Made by a program: the position numbers and the translations under genes. A stretch of DNA of 21,876 bases from Planctomycetota bacterium. Its GTDB lineage: Bacteria > Planctomycetota > UBA1135 > GCA-002686595. The stretch spans positions 1 through 21,876 of the forward strand of contig JBLHLB010000028.1 of the NCBI GenBank assembly GCA_047618505.1, written 5' to 3'. Below the pieces are notes generated by a model. The model was not told where the DNA came from. It did no database searches and worked only from the letters and a program-made list of their open reading frames with translations. Position 1 is the first letter of the stretch, and the number at the start of each line of letters is the position of its first letter. Positions 1 through 15,802 of this stretch are shown one piece after another.

Positions 1-1
1 C

Positions 2-55
2 TTCGTCCTCGCAAGCATCGCCGCCGCCGTCTACTTCTTCCTGATCCGCGAATAG
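2..55 (+). CDS. 3' end of an upstream gene running in from the window edge; hydrophobic C-terminal tail FVLASIAAAVYFFLIRE then TAG
   Basis: Frame 2 is open from the window start to TAG at 53-55. The translated tail looks like the end of a TM helix. Only 18 codons are visible. Confidence 0.3.
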   Translation, partial: FVLASIAAAVYFFLIRE

Positions 56-110
56 GGCGATCCATATGGACCTTCGTTGTAGGGAAACCAAGAGCAGGGG
101 AGCGCGGTCG

Positions 111-2384
111 ATGGGGTGGTTGCTCCTGGGTGCGATCCCGCTTCTCGGCTCCCTCGGTCACAGTTCCTTCGCCCCTCTTTTTCCTGGGGGCAGCGCTTCA
201 GAGGCCGGCGATCCGGTGGGCCAGGACTCGAACCGTCCCTTCCTGCACTACGATCACGTTGCGGCACCCTGGTTGAATCCCGATTTAGGTGAAGTCGAGC
301 GCGATTGCCTTGGGTGTCACGACCTGGACGCGCCCTGGAGTGACGTCAACGCCAAGGCGCTCTGCGCGAAGTGCCACTACCAGTACACGGCGACGGTTCC
401 TGAGTTTCCGGTGGACCAGAAGGTGGCAACGGACGGGACGCTTGGCTTCGGCTACGCGTCGATGGAAGTCTTCCTACACGGTGAGCATGGCACTCTGACC
501 TGTCGCGAGTGCCATGCACCCGACTCCTTCCGTCAGGGGCAGATTCTGAAGTCGATTCCGCAGTCCGCGACGATGGTGATTCGGCGCGGGATCAACGAGT
601 GTCAGCGATGCCATGAAACAGGCAGTTTGGAGACCCTTGGTCGGCCGCTAGAGGCACGCTCTGGTGACTCCGCCGGTCTTGAGGCGGACAGCTTCTTCTC
701 CGGTCTCAACGGAGATCCGAGCATGGGGCCCGATGCATTGGGCGCGTTCATCCACGGCGAGCACATGCTGGATCCGGCGGCGTCCTTTAGCCTCTCAAGC
801 CTTCACGCCGATGCCGAAGGGTGCGCGACTTGCCACGCCGCGCTCCTGCTCGAGACTACACAGCGCTCGGCGCCGGAAGAGCTGCTTCCGCAGGCGGGTT
901 GCGATGAATGCCACGTTTCCGTCGACGACAGCGCCCTCTCTTTCAGGGGTCCATCGGAGGCGCTACCGTCCCTTTCCAGTGGGGCATTTTTCCACGGCGA
1001 CCATCTCCGTACGGGTGTTGCCGGCCGCGTTTCTGCAGGCGTTGCCAGTGCGGATTCCCATGCCCAGCTCGAGATCCAGAGCTGCAGCGTCTGCCACCAA
1101 GTCGGCGGCTCCGATGGTGGCCGCGAGTTCGCCTTCGACCTAGCCCAACCAGAATATAGCTATTTGGGATGCGCGCAGTGCCACGACACCCCCGCGTGGC
1201 AAACACAAGGTCACGGCGAATGGACCAGTTGCACGGATTGTCACAGCTTCAGCGGTCCGACCAGTGACCTAAGGACAGATCGGCCGCTTGCTGCCGAGCC
1301 GGTAGCGCGTCGTAGGCCTACGAGTTTTCGAATCGAAAGCCAAACGCACCGGATGATCACCGGGCTCACAAAGGCAGACCTGGATCAAGCCTGCGTCGAA
1401 TGCCATCGCGCCCCGGTCGAGTCCCTTCCCTCGCGCATTCGCGACACAGCCTTCCGTCACTCTACACATCTACCCGCGGAGTTCGACAGCGACGATTGCT
1501 TGCGTTGCCACAGTGAACCCGTGGCCCAGGCAAGTCGTTCCTGGGAGCTGGGTGGGGCCCTAGCGGGCAATTCGATCCAGCCTGCGGAGGACGGGGAAGC
1601 ACACCCGCGCTTCGGTCTGACCTACGATCCCGATAGCTGCAACGGGTGCCATGAGGGAGCAGTGATCACTCCTGTCCTCGCCCCGATCGAGACCAGTTTG
1701 ACTGTGGAATTCTCCCACGCCGGTCACCTCACACCTGAATTACTGGATCCTCTTGGGGAGCACGCAATTTCCTGTGGCGATTGCCACGGAGTACAGGGTG
1801 GGGCTGACCTTGGAGAGCCCGTGGATCCGTCGCGCTTCTTCGCCAAGCCCGCTGAGTGCTCCAGCTGTCACGACCATGGGGAGAACGCAGCGATTACAGC
1901 AAACTTCGGTGGTCTTGCTTCGAGCAGCGCGACGAGCTGTGCCCAATGTCACGGCGGGGGCCAAGGTGGGGGCATCCCATTCATCCGCAGCGGCGAACTC
2001 TTGGCGAGCTCAAGCCTCGCCCAGCGCGTCGCAACCGTCAGCGGAATCCAGGCACACCCGAACGACAGAAACTGCGAGACATGTCACGTCACCATGGGGA
2101 ATGAGTTGCGGAGCCCTGACGTTGCCCTAGGTCTTGTCTCCGTCGCCGGTATCAAGAAGAGGATGCACGGCGGAGACTATCCCCAGGTGGATCCCAATGC
2201 ACCAGCCGTGTCGGCGGACGGATCCAAGGAGCAGCAGACTTGCCTTTCCTGTCACTGGACTCTGATCGCCAGCTCGATGACGCAGGACCCCTTCAGCCCC
2301 GAGATTCGCGACGTCTTCGGCAGTCTGCTAGGGACTACACCGCCACGCACCTTCCCCGGCAGACCCGCGTCTGAGCTTCGATGA
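111..2384 (+). CDS. Secreted multiheme cytochrome c with 17 CxxCH motifs, built from c3/c7-type domains
   Basis: The ORF track gives 66..2384. I prefer the ATG at 111 (MGWLLLGAIPLLGSLGHSSFA, a Sec-type signal peptide) because GGGGAG lies 8 nt upstream. I count 17 CxxCH motifs: CLGCH, CAKCH, CRECH, CQRCH, CATCH, CDECH, CSVCH, CAQCH, CTDCH, CVECH, CLRCH, CNGCH, CGDCH, CSSCH, CAQCH, CETCH, CLSCH. F-x-H-x-x-H motifs recur before heme sites (FLHGEH, FIHGEH, FFHGDH, FRHSTH, FSHAGH), as in cytochrome c3/c7 distal His ligands. Confidence 0.9.
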   Translation: MGWLLLGAIPLLGSLGHSSFAPLFPGGSASEAGDPVGQDSNRPFLHYDHVAAPWLNPDLGEVERDCLGCHDLDAPWSDVNAKALCAKCHYQYTATVPEFPVDQKVATDGTLGFGYASMEVFLHGEHGTLTCRECHAPDSFRQGQILKSIPQSATMVIRRGINECQRCHETGSLETLGRPLEARSGDSAGLEADSFFSGLNGDPSMGPDALGAFIHGEHMLDPAASFSLSSLHADAEGCATCHAALLLETTQRSAPEELLPQAGCDECHVSVDDSALSFRGPSEALPSLSSGAFFHGDHLRTGVAGRVSAGVASADSHAQLEIQSCSVCHQVGGSDGGREFAFDLAQPEYSYLGCAQCHDTPAWQTQGHGEWTSCTDCHSFSGPTSDLRTDRPLAAEPVARRRPTSFRIESQTHRMITGLTKADLDQACVECHRAPVESLPSRIRDTAFRHSTHLPAEFDSDDCLRCHSEPVAQASRSWELGGALAGNSIQPAEDGEAHPRFGLTYDPDSCNGCHEGAVITPVLAPIETSLTVEFSHAGHLTPELLDPLGEHAISCGDCHGVQGGADLGEPVDPSRFFAKPAECSSCHDHGENAAITANFGGLASSSATSCAQCHGGGQGGGIPFIRSGELLASSSLAQRVATVSGIQAHPNDRNCETCHVTMGNELRSPDVALGLVSVAGIKKRMHGGDYPQVDPNAPAVSADGSKEQQTCLSCHWTLIASSMTQDPFSPEIRDVFGSLLGTTPPRTFPGRPASELR

Positions 2385-3457: not shown

Positions 3458-4963
3458 ATGGCAGCCCAAACAGATAACAGCGACGTCCTGGCCCAGTTGG
3501 GGCGACTCGCTCCCTTTGCCGACCTCGGCGAAGAGACCAAGCAGAACAAGAAGCAGCGTGCCGCGCTCCTGGAGTTCCACCGCTTCGAAGACTACTCCCG
3601 CGGCGAAGTGATCATCGAGCAGGGGGAATTCACCGGCGAATTCTGTGTCGTCATCTCCGGCTCCGTGGCCGTCTTCCGCTCCGAGGATGGGTCCATCAAT
3701 CGCCTGGGCAATCTGGGCTCGGGGGAGTGGTTCGGCGAAATGAGCGCCCTCTCCTTCCAGGCCGCAGTGGCGCAGGTGCGCTCGGAGTCCCGCGCCTTGG
3801 TCCTGGTGATCGACCAAGCGCTCTTCAAAACGCTCTATGAAGCGGCCAAGGGCAAGAGCGCCTTCAAGGCGGCGATCGACGAAAAGTACCGCCAGCGCGC
3901 CCTCTCCCTGCACCTGCGCGTGGCGCCGCTCCTGGCAGAGTTGAGCGTCGCCGACCTAGAGTCCATTGGCCAACGAGCGGAGCTCGTGCGTTTCGAAGAA
4001 GGCGACGTGGTCGCCGAGCAGGGAGTGAAGGCCGATGCCGTCTACCTGATTCGAAGCGGCGCGGTGAAAGAAGTACGCCGGGATGAGAAAGGCTCTGAGC
4101 GCGTGCATTCCTACTATCGCGGCAACTCCTCGGTCGGGGAAAACTGCCTCGCACGGGAGGACGTTTCCTGGCGCGGGACCCTGACGGCCATGACGCCCAC
4201 GGATGTGGTCAAGATTCCCGTGGGCGTGTTCCTGGAGATCTTCGGCGCAACGGGGGCAGCGGCCGCGAACGAGAGTCAGACCCTGAGCAGGCTGCGCCTG
4301 GCGGCGGATCGAATCGCCGCGGAGGATCGCGGTGTCGAAACAGGGGGCTCCAGCGACGAACTTGACGTGATGGTCGGCGCCGAAAGCGCCAAGGGCGGCA
4401 AGGCGCTGGTGATCGACCTGGACAAGTGCACTCGCTGCAATGCATGCGTGGAATCCTGTGTCGCTGCCCACGAAGACGGTATTCCGCGGCTCTCCAAGAA
4501 GGGCAATCGCATCTCGTCGAACAAGGTGTTGTCGTCGGCCTGCTACAGCTGCGAGATCCCGGACTGCATGCAGTCCTGTGACTTCGGTGCAATCCGTCGC
4601 GACGTGAACGGATCGATCCGCTTCATCTACGATAACTGTACGGGCTGCACGCTCTGCGTTCCCGCCTGTCCCTATGACGTCATTCGCATGACGCCTCCGC
4701 CTAACCAGCCGGATTCGCGTCCCCCGGGCTTCCTGGAGAGCATTCCATTTCTGGGCAAGCTCCTGGCGCCGAAACGTCCCGAGGAAATCGACGCTGGCGA
4801 GAAGGTCTTGGCGGCACGCACCCAGGGAGCGGTGGCCGGCAAAGCCATCAAATGCGATCTGTGTGCGGGCTTGCCCTATGAGGCCTGTGTCTACAACTGT
4901 CCCTGCGGCGCCATCGATCGCTTCGATCCGGCTGCCCTCTTTGCTGGCGAGGAATCCAAGTAG
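3458..4963 (+). CDS. Cytoplasmic fusion protein: two tandem cNMP-binding (CAP-effector-like) domains plus a C-terminal four-cluster [4Fe-4S] ferredoxin domain (NrfC/PsrB/HybA-like)
   Basis: There is a 3-nt gap after the upstream stop and no signal peptide. cNMP-like domains cover aa ~18-130 (GEWFGEMSAL...) and aa ~150-262 (VGENCLAREDVSWRGTLTAM). Four Cys clusters follow: C324-x2-C-x2-C-x3-C, C362-x2-C-x4-C-x3-C, C394-x2-C-x2-C-x3-CP, C466-x2-C-x7-C-x3-CP. Confidence 0.9.
   Translation: MAAQTDNSDVLAQLGRLAPFADLGEETKQNKKQRAALLEFHRFEDYSRGEVIIEQGEFTGEFCVVISGSVAVFRSEDGSINRLGNLGSGEWFGEMSALSFQAAVAQVRSESRALVLVIDQALFKTLYEAAKGKSAFKAAIDEKYRQRALSLHLRVAPLLAELSVADLESIGQRAELVRFEEGDVVAEQGVKADAVYLIRSGAVKEVRRDEKGSERVHSYYRGNSSVGENCLAREDVSWRGTLTAMTPTDVVKIPVGVFLEIFGATGAAAANESQTLSRLRLAADRIAAEDRGVETGGSSDELDVMVGAESAKGGKALVIDLDKCTRCNACVESCVAAHEDGIPRLSKKGNRISSNKVLSSACYSCEIPDCMQSCDFGAIRRDVNGSIRFIYDNCTGCTLCVPACPYDVIRMTPPPNQPDSRPPGFLESIPFLGKLLAPKRPEEIDAGEKVLAARTQGAVAGKAIKCDLCAGLPYEACVYNCPCGAIDRFDPAALFAGEESK
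3509..3847 (+). other. cNMP-binding-like domain 1 of the ferredoxin fusion protein
   Basis: Beta-roll signature G-x-GE-x-FGE-x-AL. The canonical phosphate-binding Arg appears to be replaced (SFQAAVAQV). Confidence 0.6.
3905..4243 (+). other. cNMP-binding-like domain 2 of the ferredoxin fusion protein
   Basis: FEEGDVVAEQG...YLIRSGAV...VGENCLA...WRGTLTA pattern, with an Arg present in the putative phosphate-binding cassette. Confidence 0.6.
4400..4927 (+). other. 4x[4Fe-4S] ferredoxin domain (16 Cys in four cluster motifs)
   Basis: CTRCNACVESC / CYSCEIPDCMQSC / CTGCTLCVPACP / CDLCAGLPYEACVYNCP. Confidence 0.85.
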
Positions 4964-4969: not shown

Positions 4970-7141
4970 ATGGCAAAGGAAGCAGATCCTGAAGGCGGCG
5001 CGGGCGTGATGCGATTTAGCATTCCTGGCAAACGCAAGAGCGATGCAGCCCGCTTGGCGAGCGTCGCCGATCGCATCACGGTAGGCTCCGCTCGTTCCTC
5101 TGACCTGTCTATCGACGATCCTGTAGCGTCGGATGAACATTGCGTCCTTACCTTCAAGGACGGGCGCTTCTTTGCGGAGGACGCGAATAGCTCGACTGGT
5201 ACCTACTTGAATGGGCTGTCCGTGCAGGCACCCGTTGAGATCGCCGAGGGCGACTCGCTGGTCTTGGGCGTCAGTCGCATCACATTCAAGATCGAGACGA
5301 GCGACGCCGGGCCGACCCTGGTGATGTCCCTAGCCGAGAAGTCCTTCTATTTCGTTGAGAAGGGCAAGCCGGCCAAGAACGGCAAGAAGCGCACCCTCGC
5401 GGATCTTTATCAGTGGGTGCGATCCGAGGTCGTCTTCGGCCGCTCCCGGATGTTGACCTGGGGGAACTTCGCGGCCGGTGGACTAACTCTTGTGCTCTTC
5501 GGTGTGGTCTTCGCAGCCAGCGTGCGCGAGCCCCTGTCGGATCCCGGACACCTGCATGCCTCGCACCAGATGTTGTTTGATGAGGGGCTGAGTGCCGAGC
5601 AGCGGGATCTGCTGAACGCTTCCTACCCGGACGCTCTGACTCTGGCGACGGCCCAAGGCTGCGATGTTTGCCACTCGTCCTTTGGGGGGACGCCGGCGGA
5701 AAAGTGCGCCCAATGCCACGGCGACATCGTCGGTGAACAGCAACATCCAGGGCTCAGCGCCGGACTCAGCGATCCCCAGGCCTGGTGGGCGGACACCGGC
5801 TGTGTGCGTTGCCACACGGATCACACTCGCGATGCCGCCTGGGACTTCATCCCATCGGTGCAGAAGACCCAGGCTTCCTGTGGTGAGTGCCACGCCGAGG
5901 ATCGCCACCCGGCGGGGGATATGCCAATCGCTCCAGTCGAGGGACAGCGGCAGACATCTATCGCCTACAACGACTTCTCCCACGCGGATCACCTGAAGCG
6001 CGTGGACGGCGGAGCAGCGGTTGCCTGCTCGCTTTGCCATGTCGAAGTGACAGAGGGCGCTGGGGTCTCGGTGGCCGCGAGCCTAGGGCGTAACTTTGCC
6101 CCCGCCGATTACGACGTTTGCACACGCTGCCACATCGCTGGGCAAGTCGACGCATCGATCCCAGAGGAGTTCCTGCCCGTAGCCATGACCTTGGCCTGGC
6201 ACGGCACGGATGACGGCGAGGAGAACTGCACCCAGTGTCACGCAGAGCTGTACCAGGATACCTTGGCGACCGTGGAGTTGCAGCGCGCGGTCAATCAGCT
6301 CTTCAGCTTGCCGACACGGGTCACCCACGGCGAGTTCATCAAGGGTCACGTAGAATTCGAAGTGGAGGCGGCGGGCAGTGTCGAGGCCTGCATCGATTGC
6401 CACCGCGATTCAAACGTGACGCCCCAGGCAATCCCCGCCCAGCCCTTCCTGCATGGGTTGCACCTGTCGGAGCTGCAGCCGGCGACGCCCGCCGATGCGC
6501 GTCGTTTGAGCGCGGCTGCTGGTGAGTGCCTGTCCTGTCACCAGGGCATCGACCAGGTCAGCACCCTGAGCGGCGATGCCTTTGCTGGGGCCGAGGGCCA
6601 ATGCGCCGATTGCCACACCAACGGCGTACCCGCGGCCTTCCGGGAGCCGGCTTCCCTGGACACCGCCGTGGAGTTTCCCCACGACGTTCACACCAGGGCC
6701 TTCTCCACCTCCAAGACACTGGAGATGGGCTGCTTCGCTTGCCATGAGTTCGCCGAATCAGATCTCTTTGCGGCGGAGATTAGCACCAATAGCGACGCCC
6801 AGAGTTGCATGGACTGCCACGCTAAGCACAACAACATGGCGGGAGCCGTGGAGGGCTGTGCCGTCTGCCACGAGGTCGGTGTCGATTCGCATGAGGGCAG
6901 TTATTGGGGCAAGACGATTTCGAAGAAGTGGCCCGCCGCAAACACCTTCGACCACTTCAGCACAGGCCACGCCGCGGGGGCAGCCATGGACCTCACCGGC
7001 ACCGCCGGCTGCACCGAGTGCCATGCTGTCGATGGTCTTTGGGACGCAACCTCGATCCTTGACGTCACCATTCCCACCGAGGCCCAGGCCGAGTGCCGTG
7101 AGTGCCACGTGAACGGGAAGCAACGGTTTCATTGGCGATGA
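4970..7141 (+). CDS. N-terminal cytoplasmic FHA domain, one TM helix, then a periplasmic multiheme cytochrome c with 15 CxxCH motifs
   Basis: There is a 6-nt gap after the upstream stop. FHA signature at aa ~13-105: ITVGSARSSDLSIDDPVASDEHCVL...DANSSTGTYLNG...GDSLVLG. TM helix at aa ~163-185 (WGNFAAGGLTLVLFGVVFAASV). I count 15 CxxCH: CDVCH, CAQCH, CVRCH, CGECH, CSLCH, CTRCH, CTQCH, CIDCH, CLSCH, CADCH, CFACH, CMDCH, CAVCH, CTECH, CRECH. F-x-H-x-x-H motifs also present: FSHADH, FLHGLH, FPHDVH. Confidence 0.9.
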   Translation: MAKEADPEGGAGVMRFSIPGKRKSDAARLASVADRITVGSARSSDLSIDDPVASDEHCVLTFKDGRFFAEDANSSTGTYLNGLSVQAPVEIAEGDSLVLGVSRITFKIETSDAGPTLVMSLAEKSFYFVEKGKPAKNGKKRTLADLYQWVRSEVVFGRSRMLTWGNFAAGGLTLVLFGVVFAASVREPLSDPGHLHASHQMLFDEGLSAEQRDLLNASYPDALTLATAQGCDVCHSSFGGTPAEKCAQCHGDIVGEQQHPGLSAGLSDPQAWWADTGCVRCHTDHTRDAAWDFIPSVQKTQASCGECHAEDRHPAGDMPIAPVEGQRQTSIAYNDFSHADHLKRVDGGAAVACSLCHVEVTEGAGVSVAASLGRNFAPADYDVCTRCHIAGQVDASIPEEFLPVAMTLAWHGTDDGEENCTQCHAELYQDTLATVELQRAVNQLFSLPTRVTHGEFIKGHVEFEVEAAGSVEACIDCHRDSNVTPQAIPAQPFLHGLHLSELQPATPADARRLSAAAGECLSCHQGIDQVSTLSGDAFAGAEGQCADCHTNGVPAAFREPASLDTAVEFPHDVHTRAFSTSKTLEMGCFACHEFAESDLFAAEISTNSDAQSCMDCHAKHNNMAGAVEGCAVCHEVGVDSHEGSYWGKTISKKWPAANTFDHFSTGHAAGAAMDLTGTAGCTECHAVDGLWDATSILDVTIPTEAQAECRECHVNGKQRFHWR
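5006..5290 (+). other. FHA (phosphothreonine-binding) domain of the cytochrome fusion
   Basis: G-x-x-R ... S-x-x-H ... N-S-S-T-G-T-x-L-N-G ... G-D-x-L pattern typical of FHA domains. Confidence 0.7.
5456..5524 (+). other. Single transmembrane anchor separating the cytoplasmic FHA domain from the periplasmic heme domain
   Basis: A 23-residue hydrophobic stretch preceded by a K/R-rich segment (KGKPAKNGKKR...GRSR). The first CxxCH is at aa 231, after the helix. Confidence 0.7.
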
Positions 7142-8793
7142 CCTCCAAGGGACCCCCCATTCGACTGGAATATACAGTCGCAGGTGTCGGTTCATCCTTC
7201 GCCTTCGATCCTGGAGTGATTCAGGTGGGGCGCGAGCCGAAGTGTGACCTGGTAATCGATGACGAGTGGATGTCCCGTTCCCATGCGACGCTCTCGTTTG
7301 AAGAGGGGCGCTGGATCGTGCGCGACACCAAGAGCGCGAACGGCACCAGGGTCAACTCCCGGCGCATCAGGGAGGAAGCCCTAACCGATGGGGATCACAT
7401 CCGCTTCGGTCGTATCGATGTGCTCTGCAGTATCCCCGAAGAGGCGGGCAACAGGATCGACTTCGTGGACGTGGATATGGAGGGACTGATGACCCAATCC
7501 ATCGCGGTGGGGGACTTCGATCAGCTCCTGCGCTCCGTCTTGCAACCGGAGGAAAAGCCCGCCGATGGAACGGCGAAGATTACCCGTTCTCCCGCCGCCG
7601 CTGGTCAGGACCAGGACGAGCCTTCGGCGCTCGGGGACGTTGCTTGGATTCTGCAGGTCGTCAAGGGCACTACTGAGGCGTTGGTTTCCGTCGACGAACT
7701 CAATCAGGTCTTGGACCGAATTCTGGTGCTGGTTTCAGAGCACCTCAAGATGGACTACGGCGTCATTTACCTTTGCGAAGAGGGGCTTGAGGATCTCGAG
7801 AAGATGGCCGAGCACTGCGGTCGTCTGCACGGCGAAACCCAGCCCGTGCAGATCAGCCTGAGTGTTGCGCGCACAGCGGTCGAGAGGCGCGAAGCCGTGT
7901 TGATCACGAACGCTGGGGACGACGAGCGTTTCGCGGGGATCCAGAGCATTGTTTCCAGTGGAACGCAGTCCGCCGTTTGCGCTCCCTTGATCCACCAGGG
8001 CAAGGTACTGGGGCTGATTTACGTTCTTCAGACTGCGCTCGGCGAGACCTACAACACCACGCACCTGGGGGTCCTCTCGATCCTGGCGGGACTCTCGGCG
8101 GCAGCCGTGGACCGCGCGCGTTTACGCGAGGGTATGGAGCTTGAGAAGCAAAAGCGCGTGCGGCTCTCTCGCTACCACGCGCCGGCAGTTGTTGAACGAA
8201 TCATCCGTGATGGCTCAGGAGAAATGACCTCCTACGAGCGCGAGATCACGGTGCTCTTTGGCGACATCGTTGGCTTCACCGCCTTGGCCGAACGCCTTTC
8301 CGCAGGCGAGGTTACGCGGATCCTGAACGAGATCTTCCAGGGGATCACTGACGCTGTCTTTGATCAGGGTGGCACCCTGGACAAGTTTATCGGAGATGCC
8401 GCGATGGCATTTTTTGGGGCACCTAACGAACAGACGGACCATGCGGAGCGTGCCGTGCGTGCTGGGCTTGCCATGCAGGCCGGTCTGCGTGACTACAACG
8501 CGGGCAGGGCCCCGGCGGACTGTTTGGGCATGCGTATTGGCATTAACAGCGGCGTCGCCATTGTCGGCGACGTGGGGGCCCTTCAACGCAAGGACTTCAC
8601 CTGTATCGGAGACGCGGTCAACGTCGCCAGCCGCCTGGAGTCCACCGTGGCTGAGGAGGGCCAGGTCGTGATTGGCCCGCGAACCTTTGAGTTGCTGGCG
8701 GGATGCATGGAGACCAAAACACTGCCGCCCAAGCCTCTCAAGAACAAGCTGACTCCGATCCAGCCGTACCTTGTTGTTGATCCAGAAGCCTGA
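7138..8793 (+). CDS. FHA - GAF - class III adenylate cyclase (CHD domain)
   Basis: The ORF track gives 7102..8793. The ATG at 7138 overlaps the upstream stop as ATGA, so I prefer it. FHA: VGREPKCDLVIDDEWMSRSHATL...SANGTRVN...GDHIRFG. GAF at aa ~195-340. Cyclase domain: VLFGDIVGFTAL...KFIGDAAMAFFGAP...MRIGINSGVAIVGDVG...CIGDAVNVASRLES. Confidence 0.9.
   Translation: MTSKGPPIRLEYTVAGVGSSFAFDPGVIQVGREPKCDLVIDDEWMSRSHATLSFEEGRWIVRDTKSANGTRVNSRRIREEALTDGDHIRFGRIDVLCSIPEEAGNRIDFVDVDMEGLMTQSIAVGDFDQLLRSVLQPEEKPADGTAKITRSPAAAGQDQDEPSALGDVAWILQVVKGTTEALVSVDELNQVLDRILVLVSEHLKMDYGVIYLCEEGLEDLEKMAEHCGRLHGETQPVQISLSVARTAVERREAVLITNAGDDERFAGIQSIVSSGTQSAVCAPLIHQGKVLGLIYVLQTALGETYNTTHLGVLSILAGLSAAAVDRARLREGMELEKQKRVRLSRYHAPAVVERIIRDGSGEMTSYEREITVLFGDIVGFTALAERLSAGEVTRILNEIFQGITDAVFDQGGTLDKFIGDAAMAFFGAPNEQTDHAERAVRAGLAMQAGLRDYNAGRAPADCLGMRIGINSGVAIVGDVGALQRKDFTCIGDAVNVASRLESTVAEEGQVVIGPRTFELLAGCMETKTLPPKPLKNKLTPIQPYLVVDPEA
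7213..7425 (+). other. FHA domain of the cyclase
   Basis: Canonical GR...SRxH...NGT.VN...GD motifs. Confidence 0.8.
7684..8121 (+). other. GAF domain
   Basis: The region between the FHA and cyclase domains has a GAF-like pattern (LDRILVLVSEHLKMDYGVIYL...KVLGLIYV). Confidence 0.55.
8239..8736 (+). other. Class III nucleotidyl cyclase catalytic domain; the Lys/Thr specificity pair suggests a class IIIb adenylyl cyclase
   Basis: Metal-binding Asp in FGDIVGFT. Substrate-specifying Lys in DKFIGD. Thr at the position of the second specificity residue (DFTCIGDAVN). Transition-state Asn and Arg in VNVASR. Confidence 0.75.
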
Positions 8794-8821: not shown

Positions 8822-8854
8822 CAGTGGCTTCTACCCACCGGATTCAAGCCACTG
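8822..8854. terminator. Hairpin between convergent genes: CAGTGGCTT, 15-nt loop, AAGCCACTG
   Basis: Perfect 9-bp inverted repeat about 29 nt after the cyclase stop, overlapping the stop codon of the minus-strand gene. No U-tract. Confidence 0.3.
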
Positions 8855-10382
8855 GCTGGGTCTCACTCATCGCCTCCGCCTCCTCGGGCGTGAAGGCCTT
8901 GGAGTTGTAGCCGAAGACATCTTCGAGGGTCTTGAACATGTTCGGGCCCGCGCTGATTTCGATGTCGCGCATGGTGAATTGACCCGGATGGATGTAACCG
9001 CAGGCGTGGGTAATGGCGTTGATGTCGTTGCGCAGTGCTGAAACGTAGTTCTTGAAACGCGCGGCGTTCGTCGGCACGTGCAAACCACGCTGAAGGTAGC
9101 CGTTCTGGGTCGCAACACCGGTGGGGCAGAAGCCCGTGTGGCATTTCTGTGCCTGGATACAGCCGATGGCGAGCATGGATTCGCGCGCGATCTGGATCAG
9201 GTCCGCTCCCATGGCTAGGGCCACGATCGCGCGGTCCGGAAAGCCGAGCTTGCCGGAGCCGACCCAAACCATTTTGTCGGCGATGCCAGCATCATCAAAG
9301 ATCTTGAAGACGCGGCTGAACCCGACCTTGTAAGGCAAGGATACGTGGTCTGCGAAGGTCAGGGGTGCAGCTCCGGTTCCGCCCTCGCCACCGTCAATGG
9401 TGATGAAGTCGGGGCCGCGTTTGCCGTCTTTCATCTTGTCGGCGAGCACCTCGAAGAACTCGAGTTGACCGATAGCAGACTTGATGCCGACCGGGAGTCC
9501 CGTCGCTTCAGCGATGCCTTCGATGAAGTCGATCATCCCATCGATGTCCGAGAAGGCCTTGTGGCTGTTCGGGCTGATGCAGTCCTTCCCCATGGGGATG
9601 CCGCGGATCTTGGAGATCTCTTCGGTTATCTTGGCCGCCGGGAGCACGCCGCCCTTGCCTGGCTTCGCGCCCTGGCTCAGCTTGATCTCGATCATGCGCA
9701 CGCGCGGTACTTCCTTGATCAAGTCCTGCAGCATGCCCAGGTCGAACTCGCCCGCCTCATTCCGGCATCCGAAGTAGCCAGTGCCAATCTGCAAACAAAT
9801 GTCCGCGCCCTTGCGGTGGTAGGGCGAAACGCCGCCTTCACCGGTGTTGTGATAACAGTCCGCTTGGAAAGCGCCCTCATTGAGCGCTTGGATTGCGTGG
9901 GCCCCAAGAGAGCCAAAGCTCATGGCGGAGATGTTGATGATAGAGGGCGGACGGTAGGGGTTAGAGCGCCCGTGCCATTCCCCCAAGACCTTCGCACAGG
10001 GAATGCTCGCGGTCTTGTCCGAGTGACTCCCCGTGAAGGCTTCGTCGCCGTAGGGAAAGACAGCGTGCTTAATAATCGGATAGCCGATGCCATAGATCTG
10101 GTCATCGGTGCCGAATCCGAAGTAGTTGTTCTTCTTGTCAGCGGATCGGTCGATCCATTCCCGTTCACTGCGATTGAAGGGCGCTTCTTCGCGGTTGCTG
10201 GCCACGACGTATTGACGCAACTCCGGGCCGATTTCGATCAACAGATAGCGCAGGTGCCCCAGGACCGGGAAGTTGCGCAAGATGCTCTTCTTCGTCTGGG
10301 TTAGGTCATGACCCAGAATGAGAATGAAGACGATCCCGACGATGATGGCCCAGATTTCCCAGCGAGCTAGATACTCAAGCAT
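8844..10382 (-). CDS. Glutamate synthase family (GltB FMN-binding domain-like) protein with an N-terminal membrane anchor
   Basis: Strong resemblance to the GltS central FMN domain (GEGG...ITIDGGEGGTGAAP...). Cx5Cx4C 3Fe-4S motif CIQAQKCHTGFCP. N-terminal hydrophobic helix WEIWAIIVGIVFILILG. Confidence 0.85.
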   Translation of the reverse strand: MLEYLARWEIWAIIVGIVFILILGHDLTQTKKSILRNFPVLGHLRYLLIEIGPELRQYVVASNREEAPFNRSEREWIDRSADKKNNYFGFGTDDQIYGIGYPIIKHAVFPYGDEAFTGSHSDKTASIPCAKVLGEWHGRSNPYRPPSIINISAMSFGSLGAHAIQALNEGAFQADCYHNTGEGGVSPYHRKGADICLQIGTGYFGCRNEAGEFDLGMLQDLIKEVPRVRMIEIKLSQGAKPGKGGVLPAAKITEEISKIRGIPMGKDCISPNSHKAFSDIDGMIDFIEGIAEATGLPVGIKSAIGQLEFFEVLADKMKDGKRGPDFITIDGGEGGTGAAPLTFADHVSLPYKVGFSRVFKIFDDAGIADKMVWVGSGKLGFPDRAIVALAMGADLIQIARESMLAIGCIQAQKCHTGFCPTGVATQNGYLQRGLHVPTNAARFKNYVSALRNDINAITHACGYIHPGQFTMRDIEISAGPNMFKTLEDVFGYNSKAFTPEEAEAMSETQPVA

Positions 10383-10525
10383 GAACGGCTTCCTTCTTTG
10401 GGGTGACTTGCGAGTCTATTAGAAGTGCCTTGTCGCTGTTTCGCAACTATGCAGATCTCCGGGGCCCGTTTGCGCGGGGTTCGCTAGGATGGATCGGGCT
10501 CAATAGACACGGAGAATGCTACGCG

Positions 10526-11206
10526 ATGAGTACGATTGCCTTCGATATAGAGGTTGCTGGCTTCCCCTGGGGGGAAGTTGACGAGAGCACCCAGACCTAC
10601 CTTCTGAAGCGGGCGCGTAACCCCGAAGCTCGCGAAGCTGTGCCCGACCGTCTGGCCCTTTACCCCGGGCTGGGGAAGGTCATTGCAATCGGCATGTGGA
10701 ATCTCGAGGCAGAGCGCGGCTTGATCCTCCTTGAGGGGGAGTCCACTGAACAAACGGATTGGGAGCGCGTCCCCAACTCCGACATCTTCCGCGGGTCTGA
10801 GAAGGAGCTGCTCGAACGCTTCTGGGAGATCGTCGACCGCAAACAACCGCGCCTAGTTTCCTACAACGGTCGCGGTTACGACGGTCCGATCCTTGCAATT
10901 CGATCCGCCCAGGCGGGTATCGCGCCCAGCGCCAACCTGATGCCGCCGCGCTGGAAGCTCGAGCGTCACGTGGACTTGATGGACGTGCTTTCCTTCCAGG
11001 GTTCCTGGCGCGAGCGCTATTCGCTCGACTACTGGTGTCACCGCTTTGGCGTCGAAAGCCCTAAAGGTGGCATCGACGGAAGCCAGGTTGGACGCGCCTA
11101 CGACGAAGGTCGCATCGATGAAATTGGCGAGTATTGCCTACGCGATGTGCGCGCGACGGGGGAGCTCTTCAAGCACCTGGAGCACACCCTGCTGCCGCTG
11201 CTTTAA
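10526..11206 (+). CDS. DEDDy-type 3'-5' exonuclease (PolB-exonuclease-like, RNase H fold)
   Basis: The ORF track gives 10403..11206. I prefer the ATG at 10526 (MSTIAFDIE...) because GGAGAA lies 9 nt upstream. Exo I FDIE, Exo II YNGRGYDGPIL, Exo III YCLRD motifs. Confidence 0.7.
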   Translation: MSTIAFDIEVAGFPWGEVDESTQTYLLKRARNPEAREAVPDRLALYPGLGKVIAIGMWNLEAERGLILLEGESTEQTDWERVPNSDIFRGSEKELLERFWEIVDRKQPRLVSYNGRGYDGPILAIRSAQAGIAPSANLMPPRWKLERHVDLMDVLSFQGSWRERYSLDYWCHRFGVESPKGGIDGSQVGRAYDEGRIDEIGEYCLRDVRATGELFKHLEHTLLPLL

Positions 11207-11233
11207 TCACCGGTTCGCCGGGCGCTTTCCGAC

Positions 11234-13018
11234 CTAGTCTTCGTCGTCCTCCGTAGGCGCCGGGCTGGCCGGGAAGGCGGGCCAGAGTTCCCACTCATCT
11301 GTTTGGGCGATGCGTTCGAACAGCGCGGCAACGAGCGCCCGCGTTTCAGCCACTGTCTCCACCGCAGGGGGCGGGGGATTCTTGGGAATCAAGATGTAGC
11401 GCGGCGCGTCACCAAGCCCAAAGGCATCCTTGATGCGCAGCAGCGCTAGGTCGTAGGTCGACTTCGTTGCCGGGATCACGGTACGCCAGGCGTAGTAGGA
11501 ACAGGCCGGGGTGAGGGCCATGCCCTGGGGGTAAATACCCACGGCACCCGGCGGCAAAATCGCCGCGATCTGTTGCCCGGCCGTCGACGGCAGTGGCGAC
11601 ATGGGGCCCGACTCCAAACTTGGATCATCGAGGGGCCCCGGGTCGCGCCAGTCCTGTCGAATATGCTCCGCACGCACCAAGCCCGGCAGTAGGAATGCCA
11701 GAGTGACCAGGATCAGGGGACCCTCGCCGCCGCGCAGACGCAATAGCGGACGACCCAGGGCTCCGAGGGCCTCGGCCGCCAGGATAGCGATCCCCGGTGC
11801 CAGGTTTAGGAGGAAGACGGTCTGTCCATTACGAGCCGCATCGCCGTCCCAGGTGTGGCGGTAGAAGGTCATCAGGAACAGACAGCCGCTGCCCAGGAGT
11901 AGGGGACCGGCGGAGAGCCCGCGGACTTCCCTGGATCCACGCCCTGCCCAGACTCTTCCCTCCCAAGCTCTCCATAGCGCAAGTACAAGTCCAATCGCCG
12001 CTAGGATCAGGATCGGCAGCGTAAAGAAGTGCTCCATGCGAACGAGCTGGCGCCGCAGCCATTCGCCAAGGGGGTGCTCGCCATCGAAGAGCGGATGCAG
12101 CATGGACCCCAGGCGACTACTTAGATTGCCCGCAAGCTCCGGAGGTAGCACTTGCCGCGTCCACAGCCCGTGCAACACAGGCGGCACAAGGGCGGCGACG
12201 GAGAGGACGGCACCCGTCTTCAGGGCGCACCTCAGGCCGCGGAACCAGAGGGCGGCGAAGGCCATGGATGGAACGAGGAAGGCGGGCGTGAATGTCACGC
12301 AGGCAGCGGCCAGGAAACTGAAGCCAGCAATGAGCAACTCCCGCGTCCGCTCGGTCTTCAGGTAGCGCAGCTGGAAGCCAACCCCAAGCAGCATCAGGGG
12401 CCAGACGAAGTTCTCATAGTTGACCAGCGCCCCATAGAGAATCTGAATCGGAAGAGCCGCCGCGAGCGCTAGTGCTAAGAGTGCAACGCGTGCATCCGCA
12501 ACCAGGCGCACCACCCACCAAAGGGCCAGGAGACCCAGGAGGTGACCAATCAAAAAGGGCACACGCGCTGCCCTTTCCGTTCCCCGCGGAGGCGCTTCAC
12601 CCTGCTGCCAGGCCTGGTCCCAACCTTCCGGCGCAAAGAGCTTCAGGCTGCTCCAAATCGCAATAGGGACCGTCGGCGGGTGATTCGGATAGAGGTAGGG
12701 CAGGGCCTCTGAATCGCCAGGCAGATCGACGCTAAGGGTGGGGTAGCCCCCGTAGGCACCCACACCAATACGACTGAAGTTCACCGCGCCGATGACAAAG
12801 CATGCGCCTTGAAACCCCTCTAGCTCGCGGTCCCAGGGACCGTTCAAGTCGCGCGCTCGCGGAACCAGAGCGGCCAACAACAGAAGTGCGACGGCAAGCA
12901 GCTCAGCAACTCTCAACAGTCGCTGAGCCCGCGCCCCCAGAACGCTCGAATCCGGGCCGTCTTCCGGCGAAGTTCCGGCTCCGGATGTTTCTTCTGATCC
13001 CCTAGACGCGACTTGCAT
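11234..13018 (-). CDS. Polytopic membrane protein, putative GT-C fold glycosyltransferase (ArnT/PMT-like, GT39/GT83-like)
   Basis: 593 aa with at least 10 hydrophobic helices in the N-terminal two thirds and a soluble C-terminal domain. The overall layout is typical of GT-C lipid-linked sugar transferases. Family assignment is by resemblance only. Confidence 0.55.
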   Translation of the reverse strand: MQVASRGSEETSGAGTSPEDGPDSSVLGARAQRLLRVAELLAVALLLLAALVPRARDLNGPWDRELEGFQGACFVIGAVNFSRIGVGAYGGYPTLSVDLPGDSEALPYLYPNHPPTVPIAIWSSLKLFAPEGWDQAWQQGEAPPRGTERAARVPFLIGHLLGLLALWWVVRLVADARVALLALALAAALPIQILYGALVNYENFVWPLMLLGVGFQLRYLKTERTRELLIAGFSFLAAACVTFTPAFLVPSMAFAALWFRGLRCALKTGAVLSVAALVPPVLHGLWTRQVLPPELAGNLSSRLGSMLHPLFDGEHPLGEWLRRQLVRMEHFFTLPILILAAIGLVLALWRAWEGRVWAGRGSREVRGLSAGPLLLGSGCLFLMTFYRHTWDGDAARNGQTVFLLNLAPGIAILAAEALGALGRPLLRLRGGEGPLILVTLAFLLPGLVRAEHIRQDWRDPGPLDDPSLESGPMSPLPSTAGQQIAAILPPGAVGIYPQGMALTPACSYYAWRTVIPATKSTYDLALLRIKDAFGLGDAPRYILIPKNPPPPAVETVAETRALVAALFERIAQTDEWELWPAFPASPAPTEDDED

Positions 13019-13029
13019 AGGGGCAGATT

Positions 13030-13443
13030 CTAAACCGCCGGCACTTGCTCTTCGGGATACTCGTAATCGGGATACTCTGGGATTTCCGGGATCTCGACAC
13101 TTGGCCAGTCGAGCTGCGGGCAGTCCCCATAGAGGCGCTCAAGGTCGTAGTACTCGCGTGCTTCGGGCTGCAGGATGTGGACGACCACATCGCCATAGTC
13201 GAGCACAACCCACCAGCCGAGCTGGATTCCTTCCATGGGTTGGTGCTGCTCGCCGACGGATTTCAGTCGCACGTGCAGATCGTTGACGATGGCCCGCACG
13301 TGGGTGCGGTTCTGACCGGAGATCACGACGAAGTAGTCGGCAACTTGAAGCTGCTTGTCGACGTCGAAGACCAGGATGTCGGTCGCCTTCTTCTCTTCAG
13401 CCAGGTGGGCTGCTGAGGCGGCAAGTTGACGGGAATCGATGAT
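13030..13443 (-). CDS. rsfS: Ribosome silencing factor RsfS (Iojap/YbeB family)
   Basis: The ORF track gives 13030..13326 from an internal GTG. The open frame continues upstream through DILVFDVDKQLQVADYFVVISGQNRTHV, which matches the RsfS N-terminal region, with no ATG/GTG/TTG in frame. I place the likely start at an AUC codon (13441-13443, or 13438-13440), 3-6 nt after a perfect GGAGG. The C-terminal part WVVLDYGDVVVHILQPEAREYYDLERLY is the RsfS hallmark. Confidence 0.7.
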   Translation of the reverse strand: MIDSRQLAASAAHLAEEKKATDILVFDVDKQLQVADYFVVISGQNRTHVRAIVNDLHVRLKSVGEQHQPMEGIQLGWWVVLDYGDVVVHILQPEAREYYDLERLYGDCPQLDWPSVEIPEIPEYPDYEYPEEQVPAV

Positions 13444-13648
13444 GAACCTCCGGACGATCCGGATGATCCGGGCTAGGGCCGGACAATGTTTGAGCGGCCG
13501 ATCGGCCGCGAAATGAGTTTGCCCCGCGTTTGCGGAGCTGCCCTCGTCGAGGGCGATCCTACCCGAGGATTGCCGGGGATAGGCCTTGGAATCAATGGGG
13601 GGCAGGACGGCGTCAAGCCGGCCTGCCCCCCGCTGTTCAATCTAGCGA

Positions 13649-13666
13649 GCCCGGCCTAGGCCGGGC
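13649..13666 (-). terminator. GC-rich hairpin (GCCCGGCC TA GGCCGGGC) 7 nt downstream of the hppA stop
   Basis: Perfect palindrome directly 3' of the minus-strand hppA stop (13673-13675). No U-tract, which is common for terminators in GC-rich genomes. Confidence 0.35.
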
Positions 13667-13672
13667 CAGTCA

Positions 13673-15802
13673 CTAGATGAACCAGGGCAGGAACACCAGG
13701 CCCACAACCGTCATCAGCTTGACGAGGATGTTGAGGGAGGGTCCCGAGGTGTCCTTGAAGGGGTCACCAACGGTGTCACCGACGACAGCGGCCTTGTGGG
13801 GCTCGGAGCCCTTGCCGCCGTGGGCGCCGCCTTCGATGTACTTCTTCGCGTTGTCCCAGGCACCGCCTGCGTTGGACATGAAGATGGCCATCATGACGCC
13901 CGTGACGAGGGCGCCGGCGAGCAGACCACCGAGGGCCTGGACGTTCCAGAAGCCCACGAGGATCGGGGCTAGGACGGCGATGACGCCGGGGACGATCATT
14001 TGCTTGAGGGCACCGTCGGTGGAGATCTCAACGCAGCGAGCGGCGTCCGGGGGCGTGGTGCCCTCCATGATGCCGGGGATCTCGCGGAACTGACGGCGAA
14101 CTTCTTCGACCATGGCGAAGGCGGCGTTGCCGACGGCGCGCATGGTCAAGGCGCTGAACAGGAAGGGCAGGATGCCGCCCAGCAGCATGCCAATGATGAC
14201 ATTGGTCGTGTTGATGTTCAGCATCAGGAAGCCGGTGCTTTGGTCAAGCATTCCGGTCAGCTTGGCGATTGCCCCCTCGTCCGTCATGCCTGCGACACGT
14301 TCGGTCACCAGGGAGCCGGCGCGGATGCAGAAGGCGCCGAAGAGCGCCAGGGCTGTCAGAGCGGCGGACCCGATGGCGAAACCCTTGCCGATGGCGGCCG
14401 TCGTGTTACCGACGGCGTCGAGTGCGTCCGTACGCTGACGAACCACTTCGGGCAGCTTGGCCATCTCGGCCAGTCCACCGGCGTTGTCAGCCACGGGGCC
14501 GTAGGCGTCAACACCGAGGGATATACCCAGGGTGGAGAGCATTCCGACGGCGGCTAGGGCGACGCCGTAGACGCCGGCCATGTAGTTGGAGAAGAAGATC
14601 GAACCGCAGATTAGAAGCACGGGGACGACCACCGATTCCATGCCCGTTGCCAGGCCGTGGATGATGTTGGTGGCAGCGCCGGTTTCGGACTGCTTGGCGA
14701 TGTTCTGGACCGGGTGCGTGTCGGTCGAGGTGTAGTACTCGGTGATCTTGCCGATGGCGACGCCGATCACGAGACCGGAGACGATAGATAGCAGAAGAGC
14801 CAAGCCCGTGCTCATGTCGTGATCGACACCGACGAGGGTTTCCGGCAGATTGAGCACGTCGGTCAGCGTGAGGAACGCGGTGGCCGCGACGACTACTGCG
14901 GAGGCGACAAGCAGTCCGCGGAAGAGTGCGGAGTGCAGGGCGTGCTCGTCATTGGCCTTCACAAAGAAGGTGCCGATGATCGAGGCGATAATCCCCATAG
15001 CCGAAACGGCGATCGGCAGAACCACGATGCCAGACATGCCGGGGTCCCCGGCGTAGGCGAAGGCGCCCAGTGTCATGGCGGCGATGATCGAGCCCACATA
15101 GGACTCGAACAGGTCCGCACCCATGCCGGCCACGTCACCGACGTTATCACCGACGTTGTCCGCGATGGTGCCGGGGTTACGGGGGTCGTCTTCGGGGATG
15201 CCCTGCTCGACCTTGCCGACGAGGTCGGCGCCGACGTCCGCGGCCTTGGTGAAGATGCCACCACCGACGCGACTGAAGAGGGCGATGGCTGAGGCGCCGA
15301 AGCTGAAGCCCAGGACGTACTCGAGGTTCTTAGAGTCGAGATCGGAGGCGTAGGCCAGCGTGAAGCCGACGACGCCTAGTAGCGCCAAGCCGACTACGCT
15401 CATGCCCATCACTACACCGGAGCTGAAGGCAACGCCCAGGGCGTCCGACAGACTCTTCGTTGCGGCCTGGGTGGTACGGACCGCAGCGCGGGTTGCGGTG
15501 TGCATGCCGAAGTAGCCGGCCAAGGCCGAAGCGAAGGCGCCTGCGACGAAGGCACCTGCAGTTTTCGGGCCGAGGCCGTCATCAGCGCTCGAGGCACCGA
15601 TGGCGATGGCGACGATGACCACGAAGATCGCAAGCCACTTGTACTCCGCTTTCAGGAAGGCGGCGGCGCCGTCCTGCACAAGCTTGGAGATGTCCTGCAT
15701 CTGTTGAGTGCCGGCATCCTGCTTCATGATGCCACCGAATTTCACGATGGCGTAAACAAGAGCGATGACGGCGGCACCGCCGGCGACGTAGAGGAATTCC
15801 AT
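13673..15802 (-). CDS. hppA: Membrane-bound proton-translocating pyrophosphatase (H+-PPase)
   Basis: Diagnostic motifs [35 protein letters not shown] and [22 protein letters not shown]. About 16 TM helices. 709 aa. Confidence 0.95.

Follow-up and report, generated by a model that had tools for sequence, protein, structure and literature searches.

The 21,876-nt contig JBLHLB010000028.1 of a Planctomycetota bacterium (assembly GCA_047618505.1, forward strand; this whole stretch is called the window below) encodes a protein, here named cnbFeS, in which two cyclic nucleotide-binding (CNB) domains are joined in one chain to a ferredoxin domain with 16 cysteines, predicted to hold four [4Fe-4S] clusters. 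Our reading of the data, to which we give a probability of about 0.6, is that cnbFeS is the cytoplasmic Fe-S subunit of a conserved and so far undescribed transmembrane electron-transfer module, and that its CNB tandem is a sensor head which has probably been retuned away from the classical ligands. The conserved module consists of a four-histidine membrane protein (memB), the CNB-CNB-Fe-S protein and an FHA-anchored multihaem cytochrome c. The coordinates of all features are collected in Table 1.

The architecture of cnbFeS is far beyond what chance would give and is a real, non-trivial feature. Comparison of the N-terminal region with cyclic nucleotide-binding profiles had been named beforehand as a refuting test; the Pfam model PF00027 (cNMP_binding) matches it in two stretches with an E-value of 1.6e-32 and 111.8 bits against a cut-off of 27.5. 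The 4Fe-4S dicluster models of Pfam cover residues 317-412, and the NCBIfam model encap_f2b matches residues 145-275. In an alignment with 38 homologues (43-64% identity) all 16 cysteines are invariant. The Fe-S half aligns over its four cysteine motifs with the solved proteins 8c0z_C (the Fe-S subunit of AOR) and 9mqx_E, and further four-motif alignments were obtained with ArrB (6cz7_B), HycB3 (7qv7_A) and E. coli HycB (7z0s_B), the last of these spanning positions 8-181 of the Fe-S domain used as query. It is of the HycB/HydN/NrfC/DmsB four-cluster electron-transfer type, as judged from sequence, with the clusters themselves predicted. The protein has no hydrophobic segment, and when it was read directly no twin-arginine leader was seen; it is therefore cytoplasmic. 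A preliminary description, made from the letters of the window, had proposed two CAP-type effector domains fused to a 16-cysteine ferredoxin, cysteine motifs that align as four cubane clusters, likeness to an electron-transfer subunit, and a cytoplasmic location; on all of these points the profile matches and alignments agree with it.

The family to which cnbFeS belongs is large. An exhaustive profile search over 1.84 billion representatives at 50% identity gave 1233 clusters at E <= 1e-30, and for 69 of the top 150 representatives the whole architecture was contained in one match. At least 15 of the 16 cysteines are kept in these 69 distant proteins. The names given in the sources are generic, for example 'cyclic nucleotide-binding domain-containing protein', and the source organisms include metagenome-assembled genomes (MAGs) labelled Gemmatimonadota, Latescibacterota and Deltaproteobacteria. 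The preliminary description had counted it as a refutation if the architecture proved to be both widespread and already characterised. Widespread it is, and a full-text literature search found no description of the CNB-Fer4 architecture or of the gene cluster.

For the gene linkage, one genome per species was scanned, which gave 151 relatives, and the loci of the best 80 of them, non-redundant, were analysed. Almost all of these 80 are metagenome-assembled Planctomycetota, and no cultured strain is among them. The open reading frames (ORFs) of the loci were called with a simple script and searched with the window proteins, and recurrent neighbours were found by clustering all neighbours in the 80 loci. 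In 63 of the 72 testable loci, memB is the gene that immediately precedes the Fe-S gene; the other nine include three ORF-boundary artefacts, four loci with memB directly downstream and one in which it is fused. In 64 of the 70 testable loci, the Fe-S gene is immediately followed by one for an FHA-multihaem cytochrome, and the six exceptions are all distant relatives. These two partners define the system, and both are absent from the preliminary description. A homologue of the secreted cytochrome encoded upstream of memB (cytA) is present within 44 of the 80 loci. In the window, the operon genes follow each other closely: they either share an ATGA overlap or stand 3-6 nt apart. The cytA product has a hydrophobic leader (read directly), and its stop overlaps the start of memB in this way.

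Similar sets of genes occur in other lineages. An 'uncultured bacterium' MAG (L077) encodes the Fe-S protein with memB and a 126-aa cytochrome c3, and L091 encodes the Fe-S protein with a memB-like protein and a 701-aa multihaem cytochrome. In a cluster from Gemmatimonadota/Latescibacterota, the Fe-S protein stands with a cytochrome c' and a 265-aa protein that has two H-x13-H motifs.

No Pfam or NCBIfam family was found for memB, and no relative in the PDB by sequence. A word-indexed search gave 8 relatives, and the wider family was recovered from the gene neighbourhoods. Two of its histidines, H161 and H175, are located in the third transmembrane (TM) helix and the other two, H336 and H350, in the fifth, so that they form two H-x13-H motifs. 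All four are invariant in the 71 sequences recovered from neighbourhoods and in a set of 48 that includes relatives at 21-23% identity, and they are also present in the fused forms described below. Both histidine helices follow strongly basic cytoplasmic loops, as read directly, and are predicted to be parallel, which would place one histidine pair near each face of the membrane. This is how two stacked b haems are classically placed. Weak matches to DUF4405 were obtained for 6 of the 8 memB members, the best having an E-value of 0.0026, which is below the Pfam cut-off; the AlphaFold2 (AF2) model of memB has a predicted local distance difference test (pLDDT) value of 77. DUF4405 proteins have been purified and bind haem b through four central histidines, like MsrQ/PepSY-like cytochromes (PMC11334425). 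In common with DUF4405, MsrQ and PepSY-like cytochromes b, memB has four conserved TM histidines and belongs to an electron-transfer gene cluster. On the other hand, it has five predicted helices instead of six, it carries two large cytoplasmic helical inserts, and its partners are Fe-S and multihaem c proteins instead of flavinylated proteins. No homology to NarI, FdnI or TmcC was detected. We regard memB as a putative dihaem cytochrome b, and probably so. As a separate observation, a segment L-T214-R-A-E217 behind its fourth helix is conserved (threonine ~90%, glutamate ~99%) and by inspection could be a pT-x-x-E site of the FHA type.

Gene fusions give the best evidence at hand that the site of action of the Fe-S protein is the cytoplasmic face of memB. 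In a Deltaproteobacteria-labelled MAG (L082, 9884-12160), the CNB-CNB-Fer4 protein and the four-histidine membrane domain are one protein of 758 aa, and the gene is followed by one for a 2xFHA-TM-cytochrome. The same fusion is found in four unrelated 50%-identity representatives (P0183, P0214, P0227 and P0238; 780-871 aa), each of which has TM helices and two H-x13-H motifs. The multihaem cytochrome beside the fusion gene in L082 (12165-13916) has two FHA domains ahead of its TM helix.

The automatic names of the relatives, 'Fe-S-cluster-containing hydrogenase component 2/CRP-like cAMP-binding protein', suggest something more familiar, namely that cnbFeS is a subunit of a conventional hydrogenase, formate dehydrogenase, complex iron-sulfur molybdoenzyme (CISM) or Nrf enzyme, or else a transcription factor of the CRP/FNR type with an Fe-S sensor. 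Partial NCBIfam matches point the same way, to AegA, NrfC (33.5 against 377.6), HydN, DsrO, DmsB and CRP (53.2 against 266), but all of them are far under their cut-offs; against the named equivalogs (NrfC, HybA, HydN, DmsB, DsrO, ArrB and others) cnbFeS scores 28-50 bits where 200-1003 are called for. No molybdopterin, NiFe, NrfA or NrfD-type gene was found in the window or in the homologous loci examined, and what is conserved beside the gene encodes cytochromes c and a new membrane protein. The candidate of a conventional enzyme subunit was rejected on the missing catalytic and NrfD-type genes and the scores below cut-off. The transcription-factor candidate was rejected as well, since Pfam finds no helix-turn-helix or other DNA-binding domain in cnbFeS, whose C-terminal half is the Fe-S domain. 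Together we consider these conventional assignments very improbable. When compared with the HycB, HydN and AOR-AorA polyferredoxins and the NrfC, DmsB, ArrB and PsrB beta subunits, cnbFeS has the same 16 cysteines in four motifs and the same spacing logic, and like HycB and HydN it has no export signal. It differs from all of these in its fusion to two CNB domains, in the absence of a catalytic partner gene (hydrogenase, formate dehydrogenase or molybdoenzyme type) nearby, in a membrane partner that is not NrfD/PsrC-like and in falling far short of every NCBIfam equivalog cut-off.

Several recurrent neighbours and fusions concern the possible source of electrons. A reductase with the domain order FHA-FAD_binding_6-NAD_binding_1-Fer2 is encoded upstream on the same strand in 15 loci (e.g. 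L028 6073-7689), and this FHA-tagged FNR-type/[2Fe-2S] enzyme is a likely NAD(P)H-dependent donor. A Pyr_redox_2/3 flavoprotein of ~795 aa lies near the module in 14 loci, and in 5 of 30 broader relatives a Pyr_redox domain is part of the chain of the Fe-S protein. P0181, P0187 and P0201 were also seen to carry either flavoprotein domains (Pyr_redox) at the N-terminus or an additional 2x[4Fe-4S] module. At the other end, a protein of ~1300 aa with LVIVD repeats and cytochrome c motifs is encoded upstream in 20 loci (L024 392-4300, L001 1270-5223 and L083 1299-5195) and may be the outer end of the electron path. A NapC/NirT-like multihaem cytochrome is present in 14 loci and an HbpS-like protein in 17.

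From these parts we propose the following mechanism. The chain of four [4Fe-4S] clusters of cnbFeS would dock on the cytoplasmic face of memB, whose four histidines are most likely the ligands of two b haems, one above the other across the membrane. The b haems would connect to the 15-haem, FHA-anchored periplasmic cytochrome and to the secreted 17-haem cytochrome. Flow is likely outward, from a cytoplasmic NAD(P)H-linked flavoprotein through the four clusters and the b haems to periplasmic or extracellular acceptors, this direction being the most likely one on thermodynamic grounds. The CNB tandem, which resembles the regulatory (R) subunit of PKA, would act as a regulatory or adaptor head at the cytoplasmic entry, descended from true cyclic nucleotide binders, and the FHA domains would tie the cytoplasmic components together through phosphothreonine.

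FHA domains occur repeatedly around the module. A 2xFHA protein is a recurrent neighbour in 31 loci, and an FHA domain is fused to the Fe-S protein in P0009, P0110 and 3 of the 30 broader relatives. The several FHA domains of the operon suggest a role for phosphothreonine in the assembly or control of its cytoplasmic side. Large Ser/Thr kinases (Pkinase and FGE-sulfatase in the precomputed annotation) were noticed near the module in two unrelated loci (L083 17300-21497 and L091 1-1112), which fits the many phosphothreonine-binding FHA domains. The FHA domain of the window cytochrome is partly degenerate (GSAR...SDEH...STGT), and that of the nucleotide cyclase encoded after it is canonical (GR...SRSH...SANGT). 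Our full-text literature search found no description of FHA-fused multihaem cytochromes.

The same features could be read as those of a redox sensor, in which periplasmic haems report through the b haems to the Fe-S/CNB protein, with the FHA-GAF-cyclase, or other FHA proteins where the cyclase is lacking, as output; cyclic AMP (cAMP) would then be made by the system instead of being its input. The density of signalling domains is unusual, with up to four FHA proteins per operon, an intact GR...SRSH...NGT motif in the cyclase (read directly), the kinase near the module in L083 and the FHA fusions of the Fe-S protein just described, and no catalytic oxidoreductase is encoded in the window. However, cytochromes with 15 and 17 haems and the LVIVD/haem protein of ~1300 aa in 20 loci exceed what a sensor needs, the recurrent NAD(P)H-type reductase partners and fusions point to a real electron flux, and a cyclase output exists in one small clade only. 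We therefore think a sensing role for the whole module unlikely and prefer the electron-transfer reading.

The head of cnbFeS was modelled with AF2 from the 38-sequence alignment, and residues 10-290 have pLDDT >90. When this head was compared with the PDB by Foldseek, the CNB-A/CNB-B tandems of PKA and PKG regulatory subunits were found (E ~1e-17), and the matches include trypanosome 'cAMP-independent' R subunits solved with guanosine or inosine. Trypanosome PKA-R subunits, too, are not known to have an arginine in the phosphate-binding cassette. As in the PKA/PKG R tandems, two consecutive CNB folds are placed on a conserved helical linker; unlike them, cnbFeS has no kinase partner and carries its effector, the Fe-S domain, within its own chain. 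An inhibitor or docking sequence was not seen in cnbFeS, although no search was aimed at one.

In canonical CNB domains, a phosphate-binding arginine (CAP R82, PKA RIalpha R209) goes together with Ala-Thr/Ser; this is found at neither site of cnbFeS. Site A reads FGEMSALSFQAAVAQV. Its Ala103 aligns with the cassette arginine of PCR12 (9ya0_MA), a solved apicomplexan protein with canonical CNB repeats, and in a family alignment of 181 sequences the column contains A 71, S 42, R 29, E 21 and Q 16. Most family members have Thr at position 106, where the window protein has Gln. The preliminary description had noted that site A appears to lack the arginine, and both the PCR12 alignment and the family column agree. 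It had also stated that the second domain retains one (WRGTLTA), and here the alignment contradicts it. The arginine column of site B is that of W238, with W in 172 and R in 8 of the 181 sequences, and the eight arginines belong to distant relatives with canonical cassettes. The neighbouring column 239 varies (P 73, R 23, A 12 and others), and R239 is a chance neighbour; in the AF2 model, strand beta-7 occupies residues 241-244, right behind W-R-G. The possibility that site B keeps its arginine was rejected on the family alignment, on the structures discussed next, which we presume to be encapsulins, and on the distant relatives, whose arginine stands in the tryptophan column.

W238 also aligns with a conserved tryptophan of 9bje_A and 9bix_A, the best solved matches to domain B. 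These are deposited as 'Crp/Fnr family transcriptional regulator' of ~475 aa; from the encap_f2b match over the same residues and the shared tryptophan, we presume them to be family 2B encapsulin shell proteins. In that family, essentially all CNB-fold domains have tryptophan in place of CAP Arg82, the 2B encapsulin of Streptomyces griseus did not bind cAMP by differential scanning fluorimetry (DSF), cAMP-agarose or cryo-EM, and CNB-like domains without this arginine are stated not to be responsive to cAMP (10.1101/2024.04.23.590730). The CNB-fold domain of the family 2B encapsulins (Sg Enc/EshA) is the best PDB and NCBIfam match to domain B and carries the same arginine-to-tryptophan replacement. 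The likeness is limited to this one domain. Its setting in cnbFeS is wholly different, with no HK97 shell fold and with no metal-binding subdomain noted.

Neither pocket of cnbFeS, as read from its sequence, is canonical. Nevertheless, the pockets have not been left to drift. The Gly-Glu pairs that contact the ribose 2'-OH (G93-E94 and G227-E228) are invariant or near-invariant, G240-T241 is kept in site B, and F92, G93, E94, A97, S99, Q101, N223, S224, G227, E228 and W238 are invariant or nearly so in the 38 homologues. Such strong constraint on the pocket residues argues for a retained pocket function and not for decay. Loss of the arginine from both pockets is seen in the Planctomycetota clade and is most marked in cnbFeS. 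Since the phosphate-binding arginine is gone and the pockets are conserved, the head probably recognises a ligand other than the classical cAMP or cyclic GMP (cGMP) type, or serves as a ligand-independent docking module.

The situation is different in the family at large. Among the 69 full-architecture representatives, 27 have arginine in both cassettes and 19 have tryptophan at site B, and the consensus of 30 diverse members is FFGEMxxLxxxPRxATV and FGExALLxxxxRxATV. The L081 and L077 proteins are examples of relatives in which both sites are canonical. The family looks like a true cyclic nucleotide receptor fused to an electron wire, and the Planctomycetota branch, which includes cnbFeS, looks derived, with pockets that have changed and FHA partners that are numerous. 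The preliminary description had suggested direct gating of an electron-transfer subunit by a cyclic nucleotide. In view of the relatives with arginine in both cassettes, this is reasonable for the family as a whole; for cnbFeS, with arginine at neither site, it is unlikely.

The enzyme that could supply such a nucleotide, a cyclase located two genes downstream of cnbFeS as had been described, has a PF00211 score of 91.9 bits against a cut-off of 21.9, and its closest solved relative is P. aeruginosa CyaB (3r5g, E 3.6e-31). The metal-binding aspartates are present in FGDIVGFT and IGDAAM, and a Lys...Thr pair, which we take to be adenine-specifying, aligns with that of CyaB; the enzyme is adenylate-cyclase-like, with its activity predicted. 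Its longest ORF begins at GTG 7102, and the start at 7138 was adopted from the gene calls in identical contigs and the overlap with the previous stop (ATGA). The cyclase is limited to the nearest clade, at ~53% identity and above, which comprises the window strain, L083, L001 and L004. Besides the contigs of the window strain, a full-length FHA-GAF-cyclase match was obtained for L001 (53% identity) only; L083 (63% identity) has a fragmented cyclase, and the match in L004 is cut by the contig end. In L083 (13647-15308), FHA, GAF and cyclase are called as three short genes in a long-read contig of 6x coverage, which may reflect either frameshift errors or a decaying gene. A 52%-identity relative, L084, has in the cyclase position (9857-11278) a 473-aa FHA-GAF protein with no recognisable cyclase domain. 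Outside the closest clade, phmmer matches to the 'cyclase' cover the FHA domain only, and FHA-only proteins take its place; the candidate of the cyclase as a family-wide partner was rejected for this reason.

Whether cAMP or cGMP made by this cyclase binds one or both CNB domains of cnbFeS and thereby opens or closes the Fe-S chain allosterically can now be weighed. In the window clade, the enzyme belongs to the same operon and its translation is coupled, both cassettes retain the Gly-Glu pair, and the relatives from other lineages with the canonical arginine at both sites indicate that the fold was originally a cyclic nucleotide receptor. But the cyclase is absent from most family loci, and precisely the clade that carries it (the window, P0002, P0003 and P0004) has no arginine at either site: in site A, alanine replaces the arginine and glutamine the threonine, and in site B an invariant tryptophan occupies the Arg position, in a type of domain shown not to bind cAMP in family 2B encapsulins (10.1101/2024.04.23.590730). 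Gating of cnbFeS by cAMP or cGMP is improbable in our estimate. As both pockets are non-canonical, we think it no less likely that the cyclase is an output, or a parallel regulator, than that it supplies cnbFeS with a ligand.

Returning to our reading of cnbFeS as the Fe-S subunit of an electron-transfer module with a retuned head, several points weigh against it. The cofactors of the module are predicted from sequence, all homologues come from metagenome-assembled genomes with no physiology to draw on, and the sequences set no limit on which way the electrons flow. So many signalling domains (FHA, GAF and cyclase) would also be compatible with a sensing device, and a pocket that has lost the arginine may bind nucleotides weakly or in an atypical manner. 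The window itself has no gene for a cytoplasmic donor unless the Glu_synthase-domain protein beyond the operon serves as one. Finally, the AF2 model of the Fe-S half has a pLDDT of 36-69, a confidence too low for the interface between head and wire to be judged.

In Desulfovibrio Tmc and Hmc and in Geobacter Cbc, an Fe-S protein is combined with a cytochrome b in the membrane and a multihaem cytochrome c in the periplasm, and a four-cluster protein is paired with a dihaem b anchor in NarH-NarI and FdnH-FdnI. The window module resembles the Tmc/Hmc/Cbc and NarH-NarI systems in the logic of its parts only, that is, cytochrome c outside, b haems in the membrane and Fe-S attached; its Fe-S subunit is not of the CCG/HdrD type. 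To our knowledge, none of the Tmc/Hmc/Cbc, NarH-NarI and FdnH-FdnI systems has been described with a regulatory head of the CNB type or with FHA domains on its cytochrome and accessory proteins. CNB folds control kinases, channels, exchange factors, transcription factors and acetyltransferases; we know of no electron-transfer chain described as a CNB-attached effector, and our full-text literature search found no such description. We class the module as a probable redox complex of the transmembrane cytochrome/Fe-S kind, in which the regulatory head is of a type so far undescribed for complexes of this kind.

Table 1. Coordinates of the features in the window (position 1 is the first letter of the 21,876-nt stretch; residue numbers refer to the encoded proteins).
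Feature	Coordinates	Strand	Remarks
3' end of upstream gene, hydrophobic C-terminal tail FVLASIAAAVYFFLIRE*	1..55	+	read directly
cytA, secreted multihaem cytochrome c, 772 aa, 17 CxxCH	66..2384	+	Cytochrome_C7, MtrC/MtrF domain II/IV, Cytochrom_c3_2 (Pfam)
memB, 357-aa membrane protein, probably five helices	2381..3454	+	two large cytoplasmic helical loops; four invariant His
cnbFeS, CNB-CNB-4x[4Fe-4S] protein, 501 aa, cytoplasmic	3458..4963	+	single uninterrupted ORF
CNB domain A, ~residues 30-148	3545..3901	+	Pfam stretch 45-128; AF2 pLDDT >90; Foldseek PKA/PKG tandems
Phosphate-binding cassette A, F92-S109, FGEMSALSFQAAVAQVRS	3731..3784	+	Gly-Glu kept; Arg position = Ala103, Thr position = Gln106
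CNB domain B, ~residues 150-275	3905..4282	+	second Pfam stretch; PDB matches 9bje_A, 9bix_A
Phosphate-binding cassette B, V226-A244, VGENCLAREDVSWRGTLTA	4133..4189	+	Arg position = Trp238; R239 = non-conserved neighbour
Four-cluster ferredoxin domain, ~residues 316-495	4403..4942	+	~50-residue insert between motifs III and IV
Cys motif I, C324-x2-C327-x2-C330-x3-C334	4427..4459	+	invariant; aligned to solved four-cluster proteins
Cys motif II, C362-x2-C365-x4-C370-x3-C374	4541..4579	+	invariant; aligned to solved four-cluster proteins
Cys motif III, C394-x2-C397-x2-C400-x3-C404-P	4637..4669	+	invariant; aligned to solved four-cluster proteins
Cys motif IV, C466-x2-C469-x7-C477-x3-C481-P	4853..4900	+	invariant; aligned to solved four-cluster proteins
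FHA-TM-multihaem cytochrome c, 723 aa, 15 CxxCH outside	4970..7141	+	TM residues 164-186; FHA cytoplasmic
FHA-GAF-class III nucleotide cyclase, 551 aa from ATG 7138	7138..8793	+	Pfam FHA, GAF, Guanylate_cyc
Membrane-anchored Glu_synthase-domain (FMN-type) protein	8844..10382	-	PF01645 E 2.5e-76; N-terminal TM residues 4-30
PolB-exonuclease-like 3'-5' exonuclease	10403..11206	+	
PMT_2 glycosyltransferase	11234..13018	-	
RsfS	13030..13326	-	
Membrane pyrophosphatase	13673..15802	-	sole NCBIfam model above cut-off = sodium-translocating type
VTT/DedA protein	16017..16787	-	
SPFH/Band 7 protein	17741..19408	+	
Porphobilinogen synthase (ALAD, haem-synthesis gene)	19408..20379	+	
PAP2 phosphatase	20343..21182	-	

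The window opens with the end of a gene that encodes a hydrophobic tail. By analogy with the closest relatives, L001 and L083, in which a two-FHA protein of 526-534 aa with a comparable hydrophobic tail is encoded directly upstream of the first cytochrome, the tail probably anchors a 2xFHA protein in the membrane by its C-terminus. The FHA-TM cytochrome downstream of cnbFeS matches FHA (E 4.3e-15), Cytochrome_C7, MtrC/MtrF II/IV and Paired_CXXCH_1 in Pfam. The gene of the Glu_synthase-domain protein is convergent with the operon and is found at the same position in L001, L083, L085 and L088 only; the protein may be an associated flavoprotein partner of this clade, which is also the one with the cyclase, and its membership in the system is uncertain. 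The rest of the window (10403..21182) consists of ordinary housekeeping genes, among which the ORFs of porphobilinogen synthase and of the PAP2 phosphatase overlap by ~37 nt on opposite strands.

A wider interpretation, which we offer tentatively and hold to be possible rather than probable, is that the trio represents a new and widespread class of ligand-gated transmembrane electron valve, in which the PKA-R-like head would directly govern how electrons enter the haem wire through the membrane. Ancestral forms, in which both sites are canonical, would be gated by cAMP or cGMP, and the Planctomycetota forms, with their arginine-to-tryptophan pocket, by another small molecule. FHA domains would assemble the cytoplasmic donors, the cytochrome anchor and, in the window clade, the cyclase on phosphothreonine. 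If this were true, a second messenger would for the first time be seen to act directly on a subunit of respiratory or extracellular electron transfer, and not through transcription or a kinase. A large family that is accompanied by the same membrane protein and a cytochrome c in the sampled lineages would then point to a general protein-level switch for the export or import of electrons.

A membrane protein family that had no annotation also receives a likely role from the analysis, as a four-histidine, DUF4405-like cytochrome b, and the module points to an assembly of a redox complex based on phosphothreonine and FHA domains. The Planctomycetota branch provides a natural experiment in which the pocket is conserved while the phosphate-binding arginine is replaced, by tryptophan at site B, and a ligand found either for cnbFeS or for the orphan domain of the encapsulins could solve both cases. 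For the organisms themselves, the module suggests that these uncultured Planctomycetota carry a dedicated multihaem electron conduit.

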